DNA of 60,224 nucleotides from Candidatus Methylomirabilia bacterium. Lineage in GTDB: Bacteria; Methylomirabilota; Methylomirabilia; Rokubacteriales; CSP1-6. Every line of letters begins with the position of its first letter. Positions within the stretch are counted from its first letter, which is position 1. The stretch is taken from assembly GCA_041493605.1 (NCBI GenBank), contig JBGPZD010000002.1:1-60224 (forward strand), read 5' to 3'. The notes below the pieces were generated by a model. The model worked only from the letters and a program-made list of their open reading frames with translations. It searched no databases and was not told the DNA's origin. A program made the position numbers and the translations under genes. Of this stretch, positions 3,425 to 37,170 are shown piece after piece.

Positions 3425-3453
3425 TTGACACGGTGAAACAGTGGACGTATAGT
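3425..3453 (+). promoter_or_regulatory. Sigma-70-type promoter of chrB (TTGACA-17 nt-TATAGT), probably giving a leaderless mRNA
   Basis: TTGACA at 3425-3430, a 17-nt spacer, TATAGT at 3448-3453. The ATG at 3462 is only 8 nt downstream and has no SD. Confidence 0.6.
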
Positions 3454-3461
3454 CGCAACAC

Positions 3462-4388
3462 ATGTTACAGACCTGGCTGCTGCTGCTCCTGAGCCTGCCT
3501 CCCCGGCCTTCGAGCCTGCGCGTGCGCGCGTGGCGCCGACTGCGCGCCCTGGGCGCCGTGCCGCTCAGGAGCTCGGCGTATCTCCTGCCCCACTCGCCGG
3601 ACCGCTACGAGCAGTTCCAGTGGCTCGCCCAGGAGATCCAGAAGGACGGCGGCGAGGCGACCCTGCTCAAGGTGGACCGAATCGAGAACATGAAGCAGGC
3701 GGACGTGATCCGCCTCTTCCAGGACGCGCGCAACGCCGATTACGCCGCGCTGACCGAGCGCTACCGGCGGCTGCTCAAGGGACGCCGGCCTCGGCTCGCC
3801 GAGGAGTTGAGCCGGCTCGCTCGGGAGACCGACCGCCTGGCCGACATCGACTTCTTCGACGCGCCGGCCAAGCGCGACGTCCAGCGCGCTCGCGAGACCG
3901 TCGAGATGCGCACGGCGGCTCCGCGGGAGCGCCCGGGCCAGCGCCCGCCGCTCCTCGACCTGGGGGCGCTCAAGGGCCGGCGCTGGGCCACCCGCCCCCG
4001 CCCCCACGTGGACCGCATCGCCTCGGCGTGGCTCATCAAGCGCTTCATCGACGCCGGCGCCGAGTTCCTCTTCGCGCCGGCCGAGGACATCCCGGCCGCC
4101 GCTATCGCCTTCGACGTCGCCGGCGCCGAGTTCGGTCACCACGGAGAGGATTGCACCTTCGAGACCCTGCTGCGCCGGTCCGGGCTGCGCGACCGGAAGC
4201 TCTCGGCCATCGCCGAGATCGTCCACGAGGCCGACCTGCGCGACCAAAAGTACGCGCGCGACGAGGCGCGCGGACTCGACCTGGCGCTGCGCGGGCTGCT
4301 CAGCGCCATCAAGGATGACCATGAGGCGCTCGCCTACGGCATGACCCTGTTCGACGGACTGTACGCGACCATCGGAGAGAAGCCGTGA
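3462..4388 (+). CDS. chrB: Chromate resistance regulator-like protein ChrB (N- and C-terminal ChrB domains)
   Basis: 308 aa. N-terminus WLLLLLSLPPRPSSLRVRAWRRLRALGAV is ChrB_N-like. C-terminus WATRPRPHVDRIASAWLIKRFID..FGHHGEDCTFE is ChrB_C-like. The stop overlaps the chrA GTG start (GTGA at 4385-4388). Confidence 0.85.
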   Translation: MLQTWLLLLLSLPPRPSSLRVRAWRRLRALGAVPLRSSAYLLPHSPDRYEQFQWLAQEIQKDGGEATLLKVDRIENMKQADVIRLFQDARNADYAALTERYRRLLKGRRPRLAEELSRLARETDRLADIDFFDAPAKRDVQRARETVEMRTAAPRERPGQRPPLLDLGALKGRRWATRPRPHVDRIASAWLIKRFIDAGAEFLFAPAEDIPAAAIAFDVAGAEFGHHGEDCTFETLLRRSGLRDRKLSAIAEIVHEADLRDQKYARDEARGLDLALRGLLSAIKDDHEALAYGMTLFDGLYATIGEKP

Positions 4389-5548
4389 GCGCGGGCCGGA
4401 CCACGTGGGGGCTGGTGCGCTACTTCCTTTACCTCGGCAGCCTGGGCTTCGGCGGCCCGGCGGCGCTGCTCGGTGCCATGCAGCGCGATCTCGTGGAGCG
4501 CCGCGGCTGGTTCACCAAGGAGGAATACCTCAAGGGGCTCGCCCTCTCCCAGCTGGCGCCCGGCCCGCTGGCCGCCCAGCTCGCCATCTGTCTGGGCTAT
4601 GTCCATGGCCACGTGGCGGGAGCGACCCTGATCGGCCTCGCCTTCGTCCTGCCGTCATTCTTGATGACCGTGGCCCTCGGCGCCCTCTATGTGGCCTATG
4701 GCGGGCTCACCTGGATGCAGGCGGCCTTCTACGGCGTCGGCGCCGCGGTGATCGGCATCATCGTGCGCTCGGCCTGGAAGCTCATCCGGATGACGGTCGG
4801 CCAGGACCGGCTGCTCTGGACTGTGTCGGCCGTGATGGCCGTGGTCACCGCCTGGACCGAGTCCGAGATCGGCTCGCTCTTCATCCTGTGCGGGGTCTTC
4901 ACGCTGTTGCTCCAGGCGCCGCCGCGCCGGCTGCTCGGCTGGGCGGGCTCGAGAAAGAATCTGCTCGGCGCCGCGGTGCCCGCGGTCTGGATCACCGGGT
5001 TGGGCGCGCCCGCCACGCCGGCGCTGCTCGGCGAGATTCTCTGGTACTTCACCAAGGCCGGCGCCTTCGTCTTCGGCAGCGGGCTCGCGATCGTGCCGTT
5101 TCTCTACGGGGGCGTGGTCCAGGAGTATCACTGGCTCAACGACAAGCAGTTCGTCGACGCGGTGGCCGTGGCCATGCTGACGCCCGGCCCCGTGGTGATC
5201 ACCGTGGCGTTCATCGGCTACCTGGTGGCGGGCTTCGGCGGGGCCACCATGGCCGCCATCGGCGTTTTCCTGCCGGTCTACTTCTTCGTGGTCATTCCCT
5301 ACCCCTGGTTCGACCGGTTCAGCGAAAACCCACAGGTCAAGGCGTTCGTCAAGGGCGTGACCGCGGCAGCCGTCGGCGCCATCGCCGGCGCCTGCTTCGT
5401 CTTGGGGCGCCGCGCCGTGTTCGACGTGCCGACGGCGCTCATCGCCGCGGCCGCTCTGGGCCTCCTCTGGCGCTTCAAGGTGCCCGAGCCGATTCTCATC
5501 GCCGCAGCGGGCGCGGCGGGGCTGCTGATCTTTTGGTTGCGAGGTTGA
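4385..5548 (+). CDS. chrA: Chromate ion transporter (CHR family)
   Basis: 387 aa polytopic protein. LGSLGFGGPAALLGAMQRDLVERRGW in the first half and LTPGPVVITVAFIGY in the second half fit the two-repeat CHR architecture. Confidence 0.9.
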   Translation: MSAGRTTWGLVRYFLYLGSLGFGGPAALLGAMQRDLVERRGWFTKEEYLKGLALSQLAPGPLAAQLAICLGYVHGHVAGATLIGLAFVLPSFLMTVALGALYVAYGGLTWMQAAFYGVGAAVIGIIVRSAWKLIRMTVGQDRLLWTVSAVMAVVTAWTESEIGSLFILCGVFTLLLQAPPRRLLGWAGSRKNLLGAAVPAVWITGLGAPATPALLGEILWYFTKAGAFVFGSGLAIVPFLYGGVVQEYHWLNDKQFVDAVAVAMLTPGPVVITVAFIGYLVAGFGGATMAAIGVFLPVYFFVVIPYPWFDRFSENPQVKAFVKGVTAAAVGAIAGACFVLGRRAVFDVPTALIAAAALGLLWRFKVPEPILIAAAGAAGLLIFWLRG

Positions 5549-10315: not shown

Positions 10316-11671
10316 CTAAGCGCCGATGACGGCCTTGACGGCGTCCTGGGCGACCGAGACCAGGCGGTCCACTTGCTGCTCGCTGATCACCAGCGGCGGC
10401 GCGAAGAAGATGTGCTCGAGCCGGCCGCGCGTGATGACGCCGCGCTTGGTCATCTCCTGGAGCACGCGCGGGCCGATCTTCTTGTCCGCGGAGTATGCCT
10501 TCTTGCTGGCCTTGTCTTCCACCAGCTCGACGGCCGCCAGCAGGCCCTTGCCGGCGCGGATGTCGCCCACGTGCGGGTGGCCGTCGAAGGCGGCGTGGAG
10601 GTTGTCGTGCAGGCGCTTGCCCATGGCCGCGGCGCGCTCCCAGAGCCGCTCGCGCTCCATGATCTCGATGTTCTTGAGCCCGACGGCGCAGCAGGTGGGA
10701 TGGCCCGAGTAGGTGAAGGCGTGCATCCAGCGGTCCTCGGGCTTGACGCCGTCCATGGCCTCCTTGATGGCCTTGGAGACCATGATGCCTCCGAGCGGGA
10801 GATAGCCCGAGGACACGCCCTTGGCGAACGACAGGATATCGGGCTGGACCTTCCAGTGCTCGAGCGCGAACCACTTGCCCGTCCGGCAGAAGCCGGTGAT
10901 CACCTCGTCGGCGATGAAGAGCACGCTGTGCCGGTCGCAGACCTGGCGCACCAGCGGGAAGTAATCGTCCGTCGGATAGAGCACGCCGCCGCCGCCATGG
11001 ATGGGCTCGGCGATGAAGGCCGCCACCGTGTCGGGTCCCTCGCGCAGGATCGCTTCCTCGAGGAGGCGGGCCGCCGTCTGACCTGCCGTCTCCCCGGCCT
11101 TGGCGCCTTCCTGCCGGTACGGATAGCAGGTCGGGATGTGGATGAAGTTGGGCACCCGCGGCTCGAACATCTTCCAGTAGGGCGCCATACCGGTGGCGCT
11201 CATGGCCTGGAGCGTCACGCCGTGGTAGGCGAGGCTGCGGGCGATGATCTTGACCTTGTCCGGCTTGCCCTTGGCCTTCCAGTAGAAGCGCGCCGTCTTG
11301 AACGCCGACTCGTTGGACTCGGCGCCGCCCGAGGTGAAGAAGACGCCCTGCATGTTCGGATAGGCCAGGGTGATCAGCTTGGCCGCGAGCTGGATGGCCG
11401 GGACATTGGAAGAGCCCGAGTAGCCGGAGAAGTAGGCCAGTTCCTTCATCTGCGCGGCCGCGGCCTGGGCGAGCTCCTCGCGCCCGTGCCCCACGTTGAC
11501 GTTCCAGAGCCCCGACAGCCCGTCGATGTACTCGCGCCCCTGGATGTCGGTGACGGTGGCGCCGCGGCCGCGGACATAGATCAGGGGCTCGAGGTGGTCG
11601 CTCGGGTGGTGCAGCGGGTGGATGAGGTGCTCCTGGTCGTCCTTGATGAGCGCGGCGGGCTCGAGCGGCAT
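10316..11671 (-). CDS. Class-III (omega) aminotransferase, PLP-dependent
   Basis: ORF 10316..11722 trimmed to MPLEPAALIKDD at ATG 11669-11671, preceded by AGGAGG with a 6-nt spacer. Contains GLWNVNVGHG, FFTSGGAESNE and ADEVITGFCRTG. Confidence 0.9.
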   Translation of the reverse strand: MPLEPAALIKDDQEHLIHPLHHPSDHLEPLIYVRGRGATVTDIQGREYIDGLSGLWNVNVGHGREELAQAAAAQMKELAYFSGYSGSSNVPAIQLAAKLITLAYPNMQGVFFTSGGAESNESAFKTARFYWKAKGKPDKVKIIARSLAYHGVTLQAMSATGMAPYWKMFEPRVPNFIHIPTCYPYRQEGAKAGETAGQTAARLLEEAILREGPDTVAAFIAEPIHGGGGVLYPTDDYFPLVRQVCDRHSVLFIADEVITGFCRTGKWFALEHWKVQPDILSFAKGVSSGYLPLGGIMVSKAIKEAMDGVKPEDRWMHAFTYSGHPTCCAVGLKNIEIMERERLWERAAAMGKRLHDNLHAAFDGHPHVGDIRAGKGLLAAVELVEDKASKKAYSADKKIGPRVLQEMTKRGVITRGRLEHIFFAPPLVISEQQVDRLVSVAQDAVKAVIGA

Positions 11672-11681
11672 CAGTCGCCTC

Positions 11682-12077
11682 CTAGGCTCTGGGACTGCGG
11701 TGGATGGAGCGCGCGGGCGCATGGCCCCGGTAGTCGCCGCCCGGGATCGGGATCCCGCGGTCGAGAGGGCCCGTGTACCAGTAGATGAAGGCCGTCGCTG
11801 CGCGCGCCCCCGCGGTCCGGACGCTGACCTGCTCGCGATGATACTGAGGCCCCTCGGCCGAGTCCAGCGCTAACCAGAGCGAGGGATCGGTCACCCGGTA
11901 GACCTCACCGGCCACCCAGCCGTCGGCGTCGCGCACGGCGGCGGGATAGGAGCCGAGATCGAGCAGCCGGCCGGTCACCTGCCCTGCTCCGACGTATTCC
12001 GCGCGCCCCTCGAGAAGTCCATTGAGCGGGAAGCCGCTCATCAGGGTGCCGTACGCGAACAAGAGATCGGTGGCCAC
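11682..12077 (-). CDS. Gamma-glutamylcyclotransferase (AIG2/GGACT-like) family protein
   Basis: ORF 11682..12164 trimmed to GTG 12075-12077, 2 nt after the upstream stop. LLFAYGTLMSG is the family N-terminal motif. Confidence 0.7.
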   Translation of the reverse strand: MATDLLFAYGTLMSGFPLNGLLEGRAEYVGAGQVTGRLLDLGSYPAAVRDADGWVAGEVYRVTDPSLWLALDSAEGPQYHREQVSVRTAGARAATAFIYWYTGPLDRGIPIPGGDYRGHAPARSIHRSPRA

Positions 12078-12079
12078 CC

Positions 12080-12895
12080 TCAAGCCCCGACGGCCGGGTG
12101 GCCCTGCCGGATCAGCGCCAAGAACTCCCGGATGGCCTGGGCCCAGCGCGGACCGGCCACCCACTGGAAGTCGTTGTGGCCGGCGCCCGGAACCCAGAGC
12201 GCGCGCTTTGGCTCCCGCGCCGCGGCCAGGAGCCGCCGGCCGTGCCAGGCGGGCACGATGTCGTCGGCCAGCCCGTGCATCACCAGCACCGGGCAGCCCA
12301 CTCGGGCGATCTTGTCGATGTTGCGGAACGTGTCGAAGGGCAGGAGCGGCACGCGGGTCATCACCCTGAAGGCCGTCACGAACGCCGATTCGAGGATGAG
12401 GCCGGCGACGGGCTGCCGCGCCGCCAGGTCCACCGCCGGCCCGCTCCCGACGGAGCGGCCGTAAAGGATGATCCGCTGGGGCGGAAGCGAGAGGTCCCGC
12501 GTCAGGTAGCCGTAGGCCGCGTCGATGTCCTCGTAGGCGGCGCGCGCCGATGGGCGCCCCTCGCTCGTGCCGTAGCCGCGGTAGTCGTAGGCCAGCACGG
12601 CCAGGCCCAGCTCGCGCAGGGCCGGTAGGAGCGGGCGGATGACGCCCAGATCCTCCGCGTTGCCGTGGCCGTAGAGGATGGTGTAGTCGGCTTTGGGATT
12701 GGGCACGTAGAGGGCGGCGATCCGTTCGCCCCCCGCCGTCCGGAGCTTGATGATGCCGTCCGCGTCGGTGTACTGGGGGGGCGGGGGCAGGAACATCATC
12801 CGGTCGGAGAAGAGCCAGACCAGGAGCGCGACCGAGCCGTAGACGAAGACAAGCGAGAGCAGCAGGCGCGCGGCGGAGAGATCAGGGACCAGCAA
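12080..12895 (-). CDS. Alpha/beta hydrolase (ABHD/BEM46-like) with N-terminal membrane anchor
   Basis: 271 aa. Contains HGNAED, the nucleophile elbow GRSVG, and C-terminal GHND. Confidence 0.8.
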   Translation of the reverse strand: MLVPDLSAARLLLSLVFVYGSVALLVWLFSDRMMFLPPPPQYTDADGIIKLRTAGGERIAALYVPNPKADYTILYGHGNAEDLGVIRPLLPALRELGLAVLAYDYRGYGTSEGRPSARAAYEDIDAAYGYLTRDLSLPPQRIILYGRSVGSGPAVDLAARQPVAGLILESAFVTAFRVMTRVPLLPFDTFRNIDKIARVGCPVLVMHGLADDIVPAWHGRRLLAAAREPKRALWVPGAGHNDFQWVAGPRWAQAIREFLALIRQGHPAVGA

Positions 12896-12900
12896 GCGTC

Positions 12901-13572
12901 TCAGGGTGCTCCCTCAGGCCCGGCCGCCTTGCCGTCCACGGCCTGGAGCACGGCCGCCAGGAAATCCCGCTCGGGCACCGCGCCCTCGAAGCCGACCTTG
13001 TCGTTGATCACGATCTTCGGCACCGCCATCACCCGGTAGCGCTGGGCCAGCTCGGGGAACTCGGTGGCCTCGATGCACTCCGCCCGCACCCGTGGGGAGG
13101 CGATCGCCATGTGCTGCGCCAGGCGCACGGCCCGGGGGCAATGCGGTCAGGTGGGCGTCGTGAAGACCTTGATGGTGACGTCTTCGGTGAGCCCCTCGAG
13201 CGCGGTCCGCGTCTCGGCGCTCAAGGCGGGCTCGCCCGTCGAAGCGGTGACGATGGAGTCGATCAGGTTGGAGAACTCGTAGCCGGCCGGGACGCCGAGA
13301 AACCGGATGCCGTAGTCGCGCGCGCCCTCGACCACGACGACCGGCGCGGCATCCACGCCATAGGCGGCGGCCTGCTCCTTGTCGATGTGCGGGTTCAGCA
13401 CCGTCACCGAAAGCTTGTCAGACAGCGCCGCGACCTCCCGGATCAACGCCACGGCCTGGGTGTTGTGCTCGCCGCCCAGCTCCGACGCGAAGACCGTGAG
13501 CTTGACGGGCCCGCCCAGCTTTTCGAACTCCTTCTTCACCGCCGTCTCGTCCTGCGCCGTGAGAAATCCCAT
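12901..13572 (-). CDS. Protein disulfide oxidoreductase / glutaredoxin-like two-Trx-fold protein; candidate selenoprotein (Sec at TGA 13147-13149, motif UPHC)
   Basis: ORFs 13147..13815 (from MGFLTAQDE at 13570-13572) and 12901..13128 are in the same frame, separated only by one TGA. Readthrough gives 223 aa colinear with PDO-type proteins. The stop sits at KVFTTPT-[TGA]-PHCPRAVRLA, where the family has TPTCPYCP. The C-terminus EATEFPELAQRYRVMAVPKIVIN is typical. Confidence 0.75.
13106..13131 (-). other. Candidate SECIS-like hairpin downstream of UGA 13147-13149
   Basis: mRNA sense is GCC-GUGC-GC[CUGGC]GC-A-GCAC-AU-GGC: 9 bp in three segments with A and AU bulges. The apical loop contains GG and begins about 24 nt after the UGA. 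Weaker than the 19232-19260 hairpin. Confidence 0.35.
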
Positions 13573-13578
13573 AGCCAA

Positions 13579-13584
13579 AGTATA
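13579..13584 (-). promoter_or_regulatory. -10-like TATACT, 6 nt upstream of the PDO selenoprotein-candidate ATG (13572)
   Basis: Minus strand reads GGGTATACTTTGGCTATG. There is no SD. Confidence 0.35.
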
Positions 13585-13597
13585 CCCTGTGCCGCGC

Positions 13598-15247
13598 TCA
13601 CGTGCCCACCGGCGTCCCACGCACGATCTCGAGGGTTCGGCGGTAGCCGGAGGCATCGATGCGCGCGTCGATGAGCGAGGGGCCCGCGCCTGTCTGGGCC
13701 GCGATGAGCGCCGACTTGAAGCCGGCCTCGTCGGAGGCCGCGAAGGCTCGGAAGCCGAAGGCCCGGGCGAGGGCCGCGAGATCGGGCCCCTCATAGCGCA
13801 TCGAAGCGCCGGCATAGCCCTTTTGCGCCTGCTTGATCTCGATGAGCGACAGCGCCCCGTCGTCGAAGACCACGATTACGATCGGCAGCTTGAGCCGGGC
13901 CGCCGTCTCGAGCTCAGCCGCCACCATCATGAGCCCGCCGTCGCCCGTGAAGCAGACGACGCGGCGGTCCGGGTGGACGAGCTGGGCGGCGATCGCGGCC
14001 GGCAGGGCGAAGCCCATGGTGGCCAGGCCGTTGGAGATGAGGCATTCCCCCAACTCGACGGCGTGCCAATAGGCCGTGGCCGGGAACATGTGGGCGCCCG
14101 CGTCCACGGTGGCGATGGTGCCGGCCGGGGTGAACTCGCGGGTGAGCTGGACCACGCGGTGGGGCGCGAGCCCGGGCACGGCCACCTCGAGCGCGCCCAG
14201 CCGCTCACGCTTGAGCCGGTCGATCTCGGCGACATCCCAGTCGGCGCGTGCCTCCCCGCGCCCCAGCCGCGGGGCCAAGTCCTCGAGGATCATCGCCAGA
14301 TCGCCCACGACCTCGCAGGCGGGGGTGAAGTACCCGCCGCCGCCCGGCACCGTGAGACCCGGATCGCTCGACGCGCAGCGCGCGAGGTTGAGCACGGGCG
14401 CCGAGTACGGCCAGCGCCGCGGGATCAGCTCCACCGTGTCCAGGCCGAAGGCGATGATCAAGTCGGCCCGCCGCACGACGGGCTCCTCGAGCGCGCCGCC
14501 GGTGAAGACGCCCATCGCGAGCGGATGAGGATCCGGGATCGCGCCCTTGGCCTTGTACGTGGTCAGCAGCGGCGCCGGCAGCGCCTCGCAGAAGGCGCGC
14601 AGCCACTTGGAGTCGGCGGCCCGGCACTGGAGCCCGGCCACGACCAGGGGCCGGTGCGCCTTGCGGATCATCGCCGCGGCGCGCTCGATGCCCGCCGCGT
14701 CGGGTGCCGGCGCCGGAGCCGGCGTCGCGCCGGCCGCCGGCCGCGGAACCTCGCTCCCCGCCACGTCGGCCGGGAGGTCCAGATGCACTGGCCCGCGCGG
14801 CTCCTTGACCGCCAGCTGCACCGCACGGGCGATCCAGCGGCCGGCCGAATCGGCCGTGACGGCGAAGCTGCCCTTGACGAGGGGCCCCACGTGGGCCGCG
14901 TGGTCGAGCCGCTGGTGGGTCGTGAACTGGAGCGCCGCCTCGGGATGCCGGTCGCTGATGAAGATCATCGGCGCGCGGTCGAGGAGCGCGTGGGCCAGCC
15001 CCGTGGCGCTGGCCGTGACTCCGGGTCCCAGCGTCGAGAGCGCGGCGCCGGGGCGGTCCGTCAGCTCCCCGGTGACGGCCGCCATGATGCAGGCCGCCCA
15101 CTCCTGGTGGCAGAGGACGAAGGGCAGTCCCTGGGCCCGGGCGGCCTCGAGCAGCTCGAGATTGGAGCCGCCGCCGGGCACGCCGAACAACCGCGACACG
15201 CCGGCCCGACGCAGACCCTCGACGATCAGCTCGGCAACCGTGGGCAT
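13598..15247 (-). CDS. Thiamine-pyrophosphate-dependent enzyme (acetolactate synthase large-subunit-like)
   Basis: 549 aa. Contains LFGVPGGGSNLELLEA, GPGVTASATGLAHA and the TPP-binding motif GDGGLMM. Confidence 0.85.
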   Translation of the reverse strand: MPTVAELIVEGLRRAGVSRLFGVPGGGSNLELLEAARAQGLPFVLCHQEWAACIMAAVTGELTDRPGAALSTLGPGVTASATGLAHALLDRAPMIFISDRHPEAALQFTTHQRLDHAAHVGPLVKGSFAVTADSAGRWIARAVQLAVKEPRGPVHLDLPADVAGSEVPRPAAGATPAPAPAPDAAGIERAAAMIRKAHRPLVVAGLQCRAADSKWLRAFCEALPAPLLTTYKAKGAIPDPHPLAMGVFTGGALEEPVVRRADLIIAFGLDTVELIPRRWPYSAPVLNLARCASSDPGLTVPGGGGYFTPACEVVGDLAMILEDLAPRLGRGEARADWDVAEIDRLKRERLGALEVAVPGLAPHRVVQLTREFTPAGTIATVDAGAHMFPATAYWHAVELGECLISNGLATMGFALPAAIAAQLVHPDRRVVCFTGDGGLMMVAAELETAARLKLPIVIVVFDDGALSLIEIKQAQKGYAGASMRYEGPDLAALARAFGFRAFAASDEAGFKSALIAAQTGAGPSLIDARIDASGYRRTLEIVRGTPVGT

Positions 15248-18556: not shown

Positions 18557-19312
18557 CTACCAGAGGCTCGCCGGCAGCGGCAGGCCCTCGAAGTCGGCGG
18601 TGGGCAAGGGCTCCCGCGGCGGGATGCCGAGGCCCTCGAGCAGGGCGTAGAGCTGGCGCAGGTGCTGGGCGGCGTGCCAGGTGGTGCGCTCGAGGAGCTC
18701 GTGGCCCGACTGGGGGCCGTAGTAGACGGCGATCGTCCGCGCGAACTCTGTCGGGGAGGCTCCCTCGAACCAGCCGCCGATCCGGCCGCGCACCAGGGCG
18801 CCGTATCGGGCGATGGCCGCGCCGTCGCGGAGATCCTTCGGCGCCGTCTCCTGGAGCCACGTCCCGGGCAGCGTCCCCATGTCCATACCGTCCACGAAAG
18901 CCAGGCTCAACCGGAAGAGATGATAGGTCAGGTCGCGGATGCTCCGGTCGCGCTGGGGCGGCTTGTGCTCGAGATGCGCCTCGGGCACCGCGGCAATCGC
19001 GCGCTCGGCCGAAGCCAGGACGCGGTCGAGCCGCGCCGCGAGCTCGGCGGGCGGCAGCTTGGCCGCGGGAGTGAAATCGACCCCGAGCAGCTCGGCGTAG
19101 GCCGGCGGGTTCCACCCGTGCACCGCGCGGGCGCCGACCGCAACGGCCGGCACCACTGCGACCCCCAGCCGTTTCAGCTCCTCGAGCGCGGCGGCGCTGC
19201 CCTCGACGTTCACGGGATCGAACTCGATCCCCCAAGACGACAAGAGCTCCTTCGTCTTGGCGCAAGAGGATCAGCCGGGCCGGTAGAAGAGGCGCGGGCG
19301 CGGCGCGGTCAT
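18557..19312 (-). CDS. Glutaredoxin-like domain fused to DinB-like domain; candidate selenoprotein (Sec at TGA 19271-19273, motif USSC)
   Basis: ORF 18557..19243 (TTG start in the track) extends in frame through a single TGA to ATG 19310-19312: MTAPRPRLFYRPG-[TGA]-SSCAKTKELLSSWGIEFDPVNV. This is a Grx beta1/CxxC/helix pattern with TGA at the first Cys. The ATG lies 1 nt after the upstream gene stop. The C-terminal part (DLTYHLFRL..TTWHAAQHLRQL) is DinB-like. Confidence 0.75.
19232..19260 (-). other. Candidate bacterial SECIS hairpin downstream of UGA 19271-19273
   Basis: mRNA sense is UGA-N10-CCAAGACGA AGG[AGCU]CUU(G) UCGUCUUGG. A perfect 9-bp lower stem starts 11 nt after the UGA. It is followed by a 3-bp upper stem with a bulged G and an AGCU tetraloop. 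It lies entirely inside coding sequence (AKTKELLSSWG). Confidence 0.6.
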
Positions 19313-33748: not shown

Positions 33749-34594
33749 TCAGCCGCCGCGGCGCCGGCGGTAGGCGGCCAGCCGCGCCTCACGCGCCCCG
33801 CGATCGGGGATCCCGGCGGCGCCTTTGGCCTCGACGGACGCCGCCGCGGCGCAGGCCGCCGCTTCCGCGGCCTCCCAGGGATTGCCCTCGCGGTGGTATT
33901 CGACCAGCAGCACGGCGGCGAACACGTCGCCGGCCCCGGTTGGGTCGACCTCGCGTGCCGGATCCGGCTCGACGTGGTAGCGCTCACCGTTGACGAAGAG
34001 GATCGCTCCCCGGCGGCCCTGGGTCACCGCGCCCACCGGGACGCGCTCGAACCAGTCGAACGCCGCCTTCTCGAACGGCTCGATGTCCTCGTCGCTCACG
34101 ACGACCACCTGGGCCTGGGGCAGCACCAGACCCGCGTCCTCCCAGGTCTGGGAGGTGATGGCGCCGGCCGGTCCCCGCCGGCGCATCCAGCCCTGGGGCA
34201 CCATCCCGACCGAGCCCTCGGGGAAGGCAGCCGCGATGGCCGGATCCACCTCACTGACGATCGGGCCGAGCAGGGCGAGCGGCGCCTGATGCCACTCGGC
34301 CGGCAGCCGGCCGGCCTCGAGATCGCTGGCGCGGGTATGAAGGATGAGCTGCCGGCCCTTGGGCGTCGCCTGGAGCTCGTAGATCGTCGTGCGGTCCGAG
34401 GGGATGTTGACGACCTCGATGCCAGCCGGCAGGGCGTCGGGCGGAAAGTCTGGGCCGAAGGAGGTCAACACGCCCACGCGAAGCCCCAGGCGGTGGGCCG
34501 TGACCGCGGCGTAATACGCGGAGCCTCCCGGCCGGACGCCCCCGGCCGTCCGGTCGAGCGTCACGTGACCGACGGCGACGAAGTCGGGGATCAC
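33749..34594 (-). CDS. PfkB-family carbohydrate kinase
   Basis: 281 aa. N-terminal VGHVTLD..GGSAYYAA and C-terminal DPTGAGDVFAA (PfkB signature 2). Confidence 0.8.
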   Translation of the reverse strand: MIPDFVAVGHVTLDRTAGGVRPGGSAYYAAVTAHRLGLRVGVLTSFGPDFPPDALPAGIEVVNIPSDRTTIYELQATPKGRQLILHTRASDLEAGRLPAEWHQAPLALLGPIVSEVDPAIAAAFPEGSVGMVPQGWMRRRGPAGAITSQTWEDAGLVLPQAQVVVVSDEDIEPFEKAAFDWFERVPVGAVTQGRRGAILFVNGERYHVEPDPAREVDPTGAGDVFAAVLLVEYHREGNPWEAAEAAACAAAASVEAKGAAGIPDRGAREARLAAYRRRRGG

Positions 34595-34601
34595 GTCAGA
34601 C

Positions 34602-35855
34602 CTAGAGATTCATCTGCTTGGCGATGATCTCCTTCATGATCTCGGAGGTGCCGCCGCCGATGGTCAGCAGGCGGATGTCACGGAAGAAGCGCTCGATGGG
34701 GTACTCGCGCATGTAGCCGTAGCCGCCGTGGAGCTGGACGCAATCGTAGGCGACCTTCTGAGCCATCTCCCCGGCGAAGAGCTTCACCATGGAGATCTCC
34801 TTGACCGCCTCCTCGCCAGCCTGGAATTTGAGGCAGGCGGCGTAGGTGAGCCAGCGGGTCGCCTCGATGAGGGTGGCCAGGTCGGCCAGCTTGTGACGCA
34901 CGACCTGCTTGTCCGACAGCGGCCCGTCGAAGGCGTGGCGCTGCTTCACGTAGGCGATGGTGTCCTCCAGCGCCCGCTCGCAGCCGGCCACCGCGTGGAG
35001 CCCGGCGACCAGCCGCTCTCGCTGGAACACGCGCATCACCTCGTAGAAGCCCACGCCCTCCCGCCCGAGCAGGTTCTCGGCCGGCACCCGCATGTCCTGG
35101 AAGGCCAGCTCGGCGGTGTCCGAGGCGCGGTTGCCCATCTTGTCGAGCTTGCGGCTCACGGTGAAGCCCGGCGTCTCCCGCTCGACCAGGAACATCGAGA
35201 TGCCCTTGTGGCGCTGGGCGCCGCGACCATCGGCTGGCTCAGTTATTGATCCGCTCACCTCGCCTCCGGCTGCGGCTCGCCCACTTACTGATCCGCTCAC
35301 CTCGCCTCCGGCTGCGGCTCGCCCTCCAATGCGCGCGGCCACGAAGAAGACGTCGGCCATGACGCCGTTGGTGATGAACATCTTGGAGCCGTTCAGCACG
35401 TAGTGGCCGCCGTCCCGGACGGCGCGGGTCCGGATGGCGGCCACGTCGGAGCCGCCGCCGGGCTCGGTGACCGCGATGGCGGTGAGCCGTTCGCCCTTGC
35501 AGATTCCCGGCAGGTACTTCTCCTTGAGCGCCTCGCTGCCCGTCCAGTAGAGGTGGGGCGAGGCCATGTCGGTGTGGACCCCGAGCGCCATGGCGAAGGC
35601 GGCGCAGCGGGAGCGCGCCGCCTCCTCGCAGAGCACGGCTGTGCTGAGGAAGTCCGCACCGGCACCGCCGTACTTTTCGTCGTATTCCACGCCCAGGAAG
35701 CCCAGCTCGCCCATGCGGGGCCAGATGGCCTTGGGGATCTGCCCCGCCTGCTCCCACTCCTCGATATGGGGCTCGACCTCCTTTTGGACGAAGCTCCGCA
35801 CCGCCTGCCGGAACATCTCGTGCTGCTCGTTGAAGATTTTCACTGCGCCCCTCAC
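34602..35855 (-). CDS. Acyl-CoA dehydrogenase carrying an in-frame duplicated 14-aa insertion
   Basis: 417 aa. Contains TEPGGGSD, FITNG, KGISMFLVE, QLHGGYGYMREYPIERFFRD and GGGTSEIM. An extra segment RAAAGGEVSGSVSG-RAAAGGEVSGSITE sits before the KGIS loop. Confidence 0.9.
   Translation of the reverse strand: MRGAVKIFNEQHEMFRQAVRSFVQKEVEPHIEEWEQAGQIPKAIWPRMGELGFLGVEYDEKYGGAGADFLSTAVLCEEAARSRCAAFAMALGVHTDMASPHLYWTGSEALKEKYLPGICKGERLTAIAVTEPGGGSDVAAIRTRAVRDGGHYVLNGSKMFITNGVMADVFFVAARIGGRAAAGGEVSGSVSGRAAAGGEVSGSITEPADGRGAQRHKGISMFLVERETPGFTVSRKLDKMGNRASDTAELAFQDMRVPAENLLGREGVGFYEVMRVFQRERLVAGLHAVAGCERALEDTIAYVKQRHAFDGPLSDKQVVRHKLADLATLIEATRWLTYAACLKFQAGEEAVKEISMVKLFAGEMAQKVAYDCVQLHGGYGYMREYPIERFFRDIRLLTIGGGTSEIMKEIIAKQMNL
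35247..35330 (-). repeat. Two tandem 42-nt units (first 36 nt identical) in frame within the acyl-CoA dehydrogenase gene
   Basis: TGATCCGCTCACCTCGCCTCCGGCTGCGGCTCGCCC occurs at 35247-35282 and again at 35289-35324. Confidence 0.9.
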
Positions 35856-35859
35856 CCTG

Positions 35860-35884
35860 CCCTCTCCCCCTGCGGGGGAGAGGG
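35860..35884. repeat. REP-like hairpin CCCTCTCCCCC-TGC-GGGGGAGAGGG
   Basis: Perfect 11-bp stem with a 3-nt loop, in the 37-nt gap between the PaaK-like stop and the ACAD start. Its CTCTCC/GGAGAG arms resemble those at 10281-10300. Confidence 0.6.
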
Positions 35885-35892
35885 AGCCTGTA

Positions 35893-37170
35893 CTAGTCCC
35901 ATTTCCGCTGGTCGTCGACCTTCTTGGCGTTCTCCGGAATCGTTCCCGCCGGCACGACCTCGACCTTGCCGCGCAGCTTCATCACCTCTCGGATGGCGCT
36001 GGTCAGGGCGGTGGCCGCCGCGGCGGGATCTTTCCCGGGGGCCAGCTCCACGCGCAGGGTCAGCACGTCGTCGTGCCCCTCGCGCGTCACGACGGCCTGG
36101 GCCCGCGTCGCGCCGCCGCCCTTGGCCGCGGTCTCGTCCACCTGGCGCGGGTGGATGAACATGCCGCGCACCTTGGTCACCTCGTCCACGCGGCCGCGCC
36201 AGCCGAGCATCCGGGGCGCCGTCCGGCCGCAGGGGCACGGCGCGTCCTCGACGACGGTGAGGTCGCCGGTGCCGAAGCGGATCATCGGGTAGCCCTCGTG
36301 GCGCACGGTGGCCACGATCTCACCCAGCTGGCCGTAGCCGAGCGGCGCGCCACTCTTCGGGTCGCAGACCTGCAGGATCGCGTCGTCGACCAGGTGCATG
36401 CCGCGGGCTTGCGAGCACTCATACGCGATCATCCCCAGGTCGGCCGTGCCGAAGCCCTGTCGCGCCATGATGCCGTGCTCCTCTTGGAAGGCGCGGCGCA
36501 TGGACTCGGGGAAGGGCTCGGCACCCACCTGGGCCACCTGGAAGGGCAGCCGCCCGGCGCCCATCTCCCCGGCGCGCTTGAGGATGGTCATGAGGAAGGA
36601 CGGTGTGCCCACGTAGCCCGTGGCGCCCACGGCCTTGGCGATCGCGACCTGGGTGTCCGTGTTCCCCACGCCCGTGGGTACCACAGCGCAGCCCAGCACC
36701 TCGAGGGCTTCATCCAGCATGTGAGCGGCCGGCGTCAGGTGGTACGAGAAGGTGTTGAGCACGATGTCGCCCCGGCGGAAGCCGCCGGCGTAGAGGCCGC
36801 CCTCGGCGTGCCAGCATGCGAGCTCCGGGCCGATGGGCTCCAAGATGGGGCCGGGAGAGACGAAGATCTGGCGCACCCGGCTCATCGGCACCGTGCAAAA
36901 GCCGCCGAACGGCGGATCGGCGCGCTGGAGATCGGGCATCTCCGCCTTCTTGATCACCGGCAGCCGGGCCAGGTCGTCGACGGTGCGGAGCGCCTTGGGC
37001 GCGAGCCCGGCCTTGTCCATCCGGCGGCGGACGCCCGGGGCCTTGGCCCAGGCGTGCTCAACCAGGGCCGCGATCCACGCGTCCTGGTAGCGCCGGCGCG
37101 CCGGCGCCGGCATCGTCTCCTTCGCCTTGTCATAGAAGCCGGTAAGGCGCTTCGGGCTCACGACAGCCAC
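35893..37170 (-). CDS. Phenylacetate--CoA ligase family protein (PaaK / F390-synthetase-like)
   Basis: 425 aa, GTG start. Overall PaaK-like layout (LPVIKKAEM.., GTPSFLMTILK, RFGTGDL, C-terminal KVEVV). The start overlaps the livF-like stop by 13 nt. Confidence 0.75.
   Translation of the reverse strand: MAVVSPKRLTGFYDKAKETMPAPARRRYQDAWIAALVEHAWAKAPGVRRRMDKAGLAPKALRTVDDLARLPVIKKAEMPDLQRADPPFGGFCTVPMSRVRQIFVSPGPILEPIGPELACWHAEGGLYAGGFRRGDIVLNTFSYHLTPAAHMLDEALEVLGCAVVPTGVGNTDTQVAIAKAVGATGYVGTPSFLMTILKRAGEMGAGRLPFQVAQVGAEPFPESMRRAFQEEHGIMARQGFGTADLGMIAYECSQARGMHLVDDAILQVCDPKSGAPLGYGQLGEIVATVRHEGYPMIRFGTGDLTVVEDAPCPCGRTAPRMLGWRGRVDEVTKVRGMFIHPRQVDETAAKGGGATRAQAVVTREGHDDVLTLRVELAPGKDPAAAATALTSAIREVMKLRGKVEVVPAGTIPENAKKVDDQRKWD

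Follow-up and report, generated by a model that had tools for sequence, protein, structure and literature searches.

Does the in-frame TGA at 13149..13147, on the minus strand of the DNA analysed here, end a short protein, or does it encode selenocysteine (Sec) within a longer one? That DNA, which we call the window, is a stretch of 60,224 nt from a Candidatus Methylomirabilia bacterium of the Rokubacteriales (contig JBGPZD010000002.1, positions 1 to 60,224). An earlier note, made from its sequence, had joined two minus-strand open reading frames (ORFs), 13147..13815 and 12901..13128, into one gene for a protein disulfide oxidoreductase (PDO) and suggested that the product is a selenoprotein. 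The two ORFs do share a common frame, in which the TGA is the sole interruption. Translation of 13572..12901 gives MGFLTAQ...KVFTTPT*PHCPRAVRLAQHM...EATEFPELAQRYRVMAVPKIVINDKVGFEGAVPE..., which bears out both the KVFTTPT-[TGA]-PHCPR context described at the time and the motifs downstream of it; the immediate context of the TGA reads KVFTTPT-TGA-PHCPRAVRLAQHM. The start proposed for the gene is the ATG at 13572, in accord with orthologous protein clusters, more than 100 in number, which begin M[AG]FL and are each exactly 141 aa long. The complete coding sequence (CDS) is predicted to span 13572..12901 and to comprise 223 codons (141, the Sec codon and a further 81), followed by a terminal TGA at 12903..12901.

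Our answer is that the UGA at 13149..13147 very probably encodes Sec, as residue 142, and that the two ORFs are in all likelihood a single gene of a known selenoprotein family. The selenoprotein reading is supported by the conservation of the TGA (79 of 80 orthologous loci), by Cys at the corresponding column of homologs, by selection on the downstream frame, by a hairpin of the bacterial selenocysteine insertion sequence (bSECIS) type, by the use of UGA as a normal stop and by a neighbouring gene with the same signature.

The family was established with the joined 223-aa product, Cys being placed at the TGA. The product scored 256.1 bits against TIGR02187, the NCBIfam equivalog 'PDO_seleno_TRX, protein disulfide oxidoreductase' (curated cutoff 185), with residues 7-211 covering profile positions 3-209 of 209. 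The best match to a solved structure was the Pyrococcus furiosus PDO, 1A8L, in which residues 1-212 align with 1-225 (E=3.3e-45); the PDO structures 1A8L, 1J08, 2AYT/2YWM and 2HLS all matched over the full length, with E-values from 3e-45 to 2e-24. The end-to-end colinearity with Pyrococcus-type PDOs that the earlier note had described is therefore upheld, by the profile as well as by the structure match. These matches indicate that the protein is built of two tandem thioredoxin-like units, colinear with those of the solved PDOs: an N-terminal unit at residues 16-83 (13527..13324; Pfam DUF7088, 6.2e-10) and a C-terminal unit at residues 133-209 (13176..12946; Pfam Thioredoxin_3, 3.9e-23), the latter with the UxxC motif (U denoting Sec). 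The C-terminal motifs TPTCPYCP, EA.E.PE, VMAVPKIVI and FEGA.PE are common to the P. furiosus protein and that of the window.

Alignment with PDO homologs places the TGA at the family's Cys column, where it had been expected. In 1A8L the residue opposite it is the first Cys of TPTCPYCP; in the Cys homolog P0001, which reads TPTCPHCPRAVRLAQHM, it is that of TPTCPHCP, and P0051 and P0056 likewise have Cys in this column. Together with the translation, these alignments define the U-P-H-C redox motif of the C-terminal thioredoxin fold (13149..13138). The N-terminal unit does lack a CxxC of its own, reading GGEHNT where the P. furiosus PDO has CQYC and P0051 and P0056 have CEYC. Because GGEHNT takes the place of the N-terminal CxxC, the protein would have U-P-H-C (U142, C145) as its only redox centre. 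Whereas the P. furiosus PDO has two CxxC centres (CQYC and CPYC), built with Cys and not Sec, the window protein has none in its first unit and U-P-H-C in its second. It is thus not a two-centre PDO of the Pyrococcus type but a single-centre variant.

A second relationship is to the N-terminal domain of AhpF (1HYU, 1ZYN, 4O5Q), with roughly 200 residues homologous (E=5e-13 to 5e-12; TIGR03140, 3.7e-22). In the structure of AhpF, the redox centre is present only in the second thioredoxin fold, an arrangement like that of the window protein. However, AhpF carries a fused flavoprotein reductase module, whereas the window protein is a free-standing 223 aa with no such module, and a Pfam scan of the window found no ahpC or peroxiredoxin gene near it. 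As the flavoprotein module is absent and the TIGR03140 score is 78.6 bits against a cutoff of 502.9, the protein is not an AhpF; the label 'AhpF' given to fragments of the gene by JGI is a domain-level transfer.

The conservation of the TGA was examined by scanning one genome per GTDB species, which gave 80 loci with tblastn matches crossing the TGA and extending from query residue 1 to about 214. The 80 species-level genomes belong to Rokubacteria/Methylomirabilota, and the proteins are 62-86% identical to the query. The codon at the Sec column was TGA at 79 of the 80 loci and AGA at one (L033); it was never TAA, TAG, TGC or TGT. More than 100 of the clusters returned by a protein search measured exactly 141 aa, with 79-96% identity and each ending in ...TPT; where the sources name them, they are labelled as metagenome-assembled genomes (MAGs) of Methylomirabilota or Rokuibacteriota. 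The same search returned a few full-length homologs (216-232 aa, 56-65% identity).

Some variation at and around this codon may be recorded here. The AGA (Arg) of L033:571 and a TTA (Leu) at L083:606-608, which encodes the 'Leu' at the Sec column of the apparently full-length protein P0002, are both single-base neighbours of TGA. Both are rare codons at the prevailing GC content, and the downstream hairpin described below is intact in both sequences; sequencing error or recent inactivation is the probable cause, rather than replacement by Cys. The Thr codon directly 5' of the UGA (codon 141, 13152..13150) is ACC in 65 of the 71 genes that we reconstructed and ranks 7th of 65 columns in codon invariance, a preference which may reflect constraint on the context of Sec decoding. 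Eleven of the loci with orthologs of the Rokubacteria type, 64-85% identical (L004, L008, L010, L013, L016, L017, L019, L029, L031, L032 and L048), lie in MAGs labelled Nitrosotalea, Nitrosocosmicus, Verrucomicrobiia, Deferrimicrobiaceae, Dormiibacterota, Acidoferrum, Limnocylindria, Elusimicrobia, Binatia or Actinomycetota. It is likely that these are mis-binned contigs or that the taxonomic labels are wrong.

If the TGA is read through, the frame that follows it should behave as protein. The gene was reconstructed in 71 genomes, the 73 aligned codons after the TGA were examined, and identity and pN/pS (the ratio of non-synonymous to synonymous polymorphism) were measured against the window. 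The frame after the TGA was open in all 71 reconstructed genes, with no extra stop and no frameshift. Median amino-acid identity to the window was 75% after the TGA against 65% before it, and median pN/pS was 0.39 against 0.49. The residues P-H/Y-C-P-R-A, between the TGA and the GTG at which annotation restarts the protein, are conserved as protein. Within them, Pro143 is encoded by CCG in 37 genes, CCC in 28, CCT in five and CCA in one, and Cys145 by TGC in 44 and TGT in 27. As codons 143 and 145 vary synonymously only, there is constraint at the level of protein on a stretch that would be untranslated if the gene were split. The downstream frame, including codons 143-145, is under purifying selection at the protein level.

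The same stretch of DNA carries a second kind of constraint. Comparison of 57 distinct sequences from 81 genomes showed that nt +13 to +32, counted from the U of the UGA (CCCCGGGCCGUGCGCCUGGC), are nearly invariant, while flanking synonymous sites vary freely. Among 65 columns at which a conserved amino acid has a 4- or 6-fold-degenerate codon, codons 146-151 (CCC CGG GCC GUG CGC CUG) occupy ranks 1-6 for codon invariance; a single codon is used in 96-100% of sequences at these positions, against 50-80% at a typical column. The invariant nucleotides fold into a hairpin, CCGGGC-CGUGC-GCCUGG, at 13135..13119, which we propose as the bSECIS on the strength of its fold, its codon invariance and its agreement with the published model. 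Its pairs are C15-G31, C16-G30, G17-U29, G18-C28, G19-C27 and C20-G26, giving a 6-bp stem with one G-U pair and a 5-nt loop, CGUGC, with a folding energy of -9.6 kcal/mol. The hairpin begins 11 nt past the UGA, and the spacing from UGA to loop is 17 nt. It is paired in 99.1% of cells of the comparison, its five inner pairs being invariant in all 57 distinct sequences; the rare natural changes affect either the loop (L032, L060) or the terminal pair (three sequences).

The published description of bSECIS elements puts the loop at 3-9 nt, the stem at 4-16 bp and the distance from UGA to loop at 16-37 nt; it also asks for a G at loop position 1 or 2 and for a minimum free energy of -7.5 kcal/mol or lower (PMC13188914, Fig. 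2 legend). The hairpin at 13135..13119 lies within every one of these bounds, with G followed by U at loop positions 2-3. Like the SECIS of the E. coli fdhF type, and like the bSECISearch consensus, it is a hairpin within the CDS just after the UGA; it has no sequence similarity to the E. coli elements, and no bulged U is evident. That consensus is reportedly due to Zhang & Gladyshev in 2005. The minimal SECIS of E. coli consists of an 11-nt spacer and a minimal 17-nt hairpin, dimensions which the window hairpin matches. In the Cys-type homolog P0056 (L087), a single sequence, only three of the six hairpin pairs can form in the same register.

Other foldings of the region fared less well. The earlier note had placed a hairpin at 13106-13131, and one can indeed be drawn at about 13128..13111, but it is not the conserved element; it overlaps 13135..13119, and we regard it as being in the wrong register. 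In 22 of the 57 sequences its closing pair does not form, and other pairs break in single sequences, for which reason it was rejected as a functional element. Folds over a longer range, 45-76 nt after the UGA, had no advantage over shuffled sequence (z = +0.4 to +0.8).

The window contains a second gene of this kind. A gene at 19312..18557, also on the minus strand and about 6 kb away, had been put forward as another Sec candidate, and the same signature of TGA and hairpin was found there. It encodes a fusion of glutaredoxin (Grx) and DinB_2, FYRPG-TGA-SSCAKTKELL, with the TGA at 19273..19271; this TGA was present in 21 of 21 orthologs, which were recovered by motif search from the same loci. 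A hairpin at about 19260..19232, 10 nt downstream of the TGA, has 8-12 bp, a loop AGCU and a folding energy of -17 kcal/mol (z = -2.95). The presence in two unrelated thiol-oxidoreductase genes of an in-frame TGA in a UxxC-type motif, followed by a hairpin, argues that the lineage decodes Sec. The Grx-DinB_2 fusion may be a less familiar form of selenoprotein than the PDO; PMC13188914, a review from 2026, nowhere has the word 'DinB' in its text.

If recoding works here as it does in E. coli, the UGA at 13149..13147 would be decoded co-translationally as Sec, with the mRNA hairpin 13135..13119, through its loop CGUGC, recruiting SelB and Sec-tRNA(Sec) to the ribosome. What is known of the family suggests that Sec142 of the finished protein would attack either an oxidised partner or the disulfide of a substrate, forming a selenenylsulfide with C145, and that re-reduction would fall to a flavoprotein of the thioredoxin-reductase type encoded elsewhere. 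The Pfam scan showed ordinary chromosomal genes only, with no sel genes, thioredoxin reductase or peroxiredoxin in the window. Since neither a reductase nor a peroxiredoxin is nearby, the context offers no redox partner to propose.

Several results weigh against the assignment of Sec. The base pairing of hairpin 13135..13119 shows no covariation in the 57 distinct sequences, in which it is invariant. Because the inner pairs never vary, the case for the hairpin rests on synonymous constraint and on its agreement with the model; compensatory changes play no part in it. Its folding energy is also no better than that of shuffled GC-rich sequence (z = -0.71), and a scan of the window at Rfam gathering thresholds found no matching family. 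Finally, the window and approximately 1.2 Mb of orthologous loci yielded no selA, selB, selD or tRNA-Sec. These searches used tblastn with the E. coli SelA, SelB and SelD proteins, ARAGORN and Rfam over the window and the 80 loci; ARAGORN reported no tRNA, tmRNA or tRNA-Sec in the window or at any of the 80 loci. As the DNA searched is the surroundings of one gene only, the missing Sec machinery is uninformative rather than negative.

The same lack of Sec machinery in the window and the orthologous loci counts in favour of the alternative that survives best, that the UGA is read through without Sec. A near-cognate or suppressor tRNA would then insert Trp, Cys, Gly or Arg, or UGA would be reassigned throughout the genome. 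In E. coli, termination is leaky where UGA is followed by C, which also speaks for readthrough of this sort. Genome-wide reassignment is excluded, however, because UGA terminates 22 of 37 confident window genes, where it is the commonest stop, and 51 of the 71 orthologous PDO genes. In addition, a UGA at the position of a catalytic Cys, together with a synonymously constrained hairpin of the bSECIS type, is the standard signature of Sec, while Trp, Gly or Arg at this position would destroy the redox centre. The family is, moreover, already a predicted UxxC selenoprotein family (PMC13188914). We therefore consider insertion of another amino acid improbable.

Still less probable is that the TGA is a true stop, leaving a truncated 141-aa protein and a separately initiated, thioredoxin-like fragment of 75 aa, or a pseudogene. 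Gene callers do split the locus into 141 aa and 75 aa in all public records examined, and UGA is an ordinary stop in this genome. Yet a pseudogene or split gene would not be expected to hold on to TGA itself in 79 of 80 species without ever showing TAA or TAG, nor to keep 73 further codons open in 71 of 71 genomes at a pN/pS of 0.39. The residues P-H/Y-C-P-R-A before the GTG restart would have no reason to be conserved as protein, with P143 and C145 changing synonymously only. Neither piece, furthermore, has a complete redox motif, as the 141-aa protein ends before it and the 75-aa protein begins after it. The chance that the TGA is a sequencing or assembly error for TGC or TGT, such as the erroneous base call at 13147-13149 that the earlier note had allowed for, is negligible: although the single-base neighbours in two relatives (AGA in L033, TTA in P0002/L083) show that variants occur at the site, the identical 141-aa product with the same split at TGA recurs on four independent contigs (JGI and NCBI assemblies), which excludes an error of base calling, TGA is present in 79 independent assemblies, and no TGC or TGT was seen in the clade.

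With Sec at position 142 as the preferred reading, the gene can be placed among known selenoproteins. UxxC proteins of the TIGR02187 type are listed as a predicted selenoprotein family (PMC13188914, PMC9312934, PMC1794560), and the family is listed also for Symbiobacterium thermophilum (PMC1794560). The passages of PMC13188914 and PMC9312934 that deal with the family trace this listing to Kryukov & Gladyshev 2004 and give ABB15282.1 of Carboxydothermus hydrogenoformans as its prototype. [quoted passage not shown] Whereas the prototype and the S. thermophilum entry stand for anaerobic thermophilic Firmicutes or Symbiobacterium, the window gene belongs to Rokubacteria/Methylomirabilota of soil and groundwater; a further difference is that here, in 79 of 80 species, the Sec form is fixed across the clade and its 17-nt hairpin is invariant. 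As the family HMM is passed and both the motif and the type of recoding signal are shared, the gene is best taken as another representative, from a different phylum, of an already described selenoprotein family.

The finding is consequently less novel than had been implied: both the family and the mechanism are known, and no new question is opened. Selenoproteins have been predicted in this phylum before, one Methylomirabilota MAG being credited with 63 selenoprotein genes in a passage of PMC13188914 that cites Deng et al. 2026, and group 4 hydrogenases of the Sec type occur in Methylomirabilota (PMC13582414). We found no literature specific to this protein in Rokubacteria. The present case adds a clade-wide and well-supported example of Sec use in Rokubacteria/Methylomirabilota, and its compact SECIS, of 17 nt with an 11-nt spacer, is a possible test case for SelB-SECIS recognition in the phylum.

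The main practical value of the result is the correction of a systematic mis-annotation. Public records (L084-L086, clusters P0003-P0120) present the gene as a 141-aa protein and a 75-aa Thioredoxin_3 protein starting from the GTG at 13128, the 141-aa piece being named 'alkyl hydroperoxide reductase subunit AhpF' by JGI and 'hypothetical protein' by NCBI. The error is systematic across all pipelines examined and affects more than 100 protein clusters. Because every public record examined truncates the gene, the sole redox-active site of the protein is invisible in the databases.

The surroundings of the gene are also conserved. On one strand, at 10316..15247 (minus), the order is a thiamine diphosphate (ThDP)-dependent enzyme, the Sec-PDO, (an alpha/beta hydrolase), a GGACT-like gamma-glutamylcyclotransferase and a class-III aminotransferase. 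This order is kept at most loci, the three main neighbours being present at 65, 72 and 69 of the 80; the alpha/beta hydrolase lies within the cluster at only eight. Given that the Sec form of the PDO has become fixed across essentially all of the Rokubacteriales, which live largely in soil, that its SECIS is invariant and that the cluster is conserved, one might suppose that the protein is a dedicated, selenium-dependent partner of the cluster's pathway, or that the frozen hairpin has a role beyond the binding of SelB. We think either idea unlikely. If the first were right, the Sec-PDO would not be a general disulfide reductase but would serve that pathway alone; a second role of the hairpin could be, for instance, to control the downstream genes in response to selenium.

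Three observations concern genes elsewhere in the window. At 33749..34609 (minus), a match to PfkB kinase is confined to the profile's C-terminal third (208-296 of its 302 positions), and at 34602..35978 (minus) the middle domain of acyl-CoA dehydrogenase is matched in two stretches; these partial matches may reflect frame problems or wrong ORF boundaries in crude gene calls. A chrB-chrA chromate-resistance pair lies at 3453..5548 (plus), with the N- and C-terminal domains of ChrB followed by the chromate transporter.

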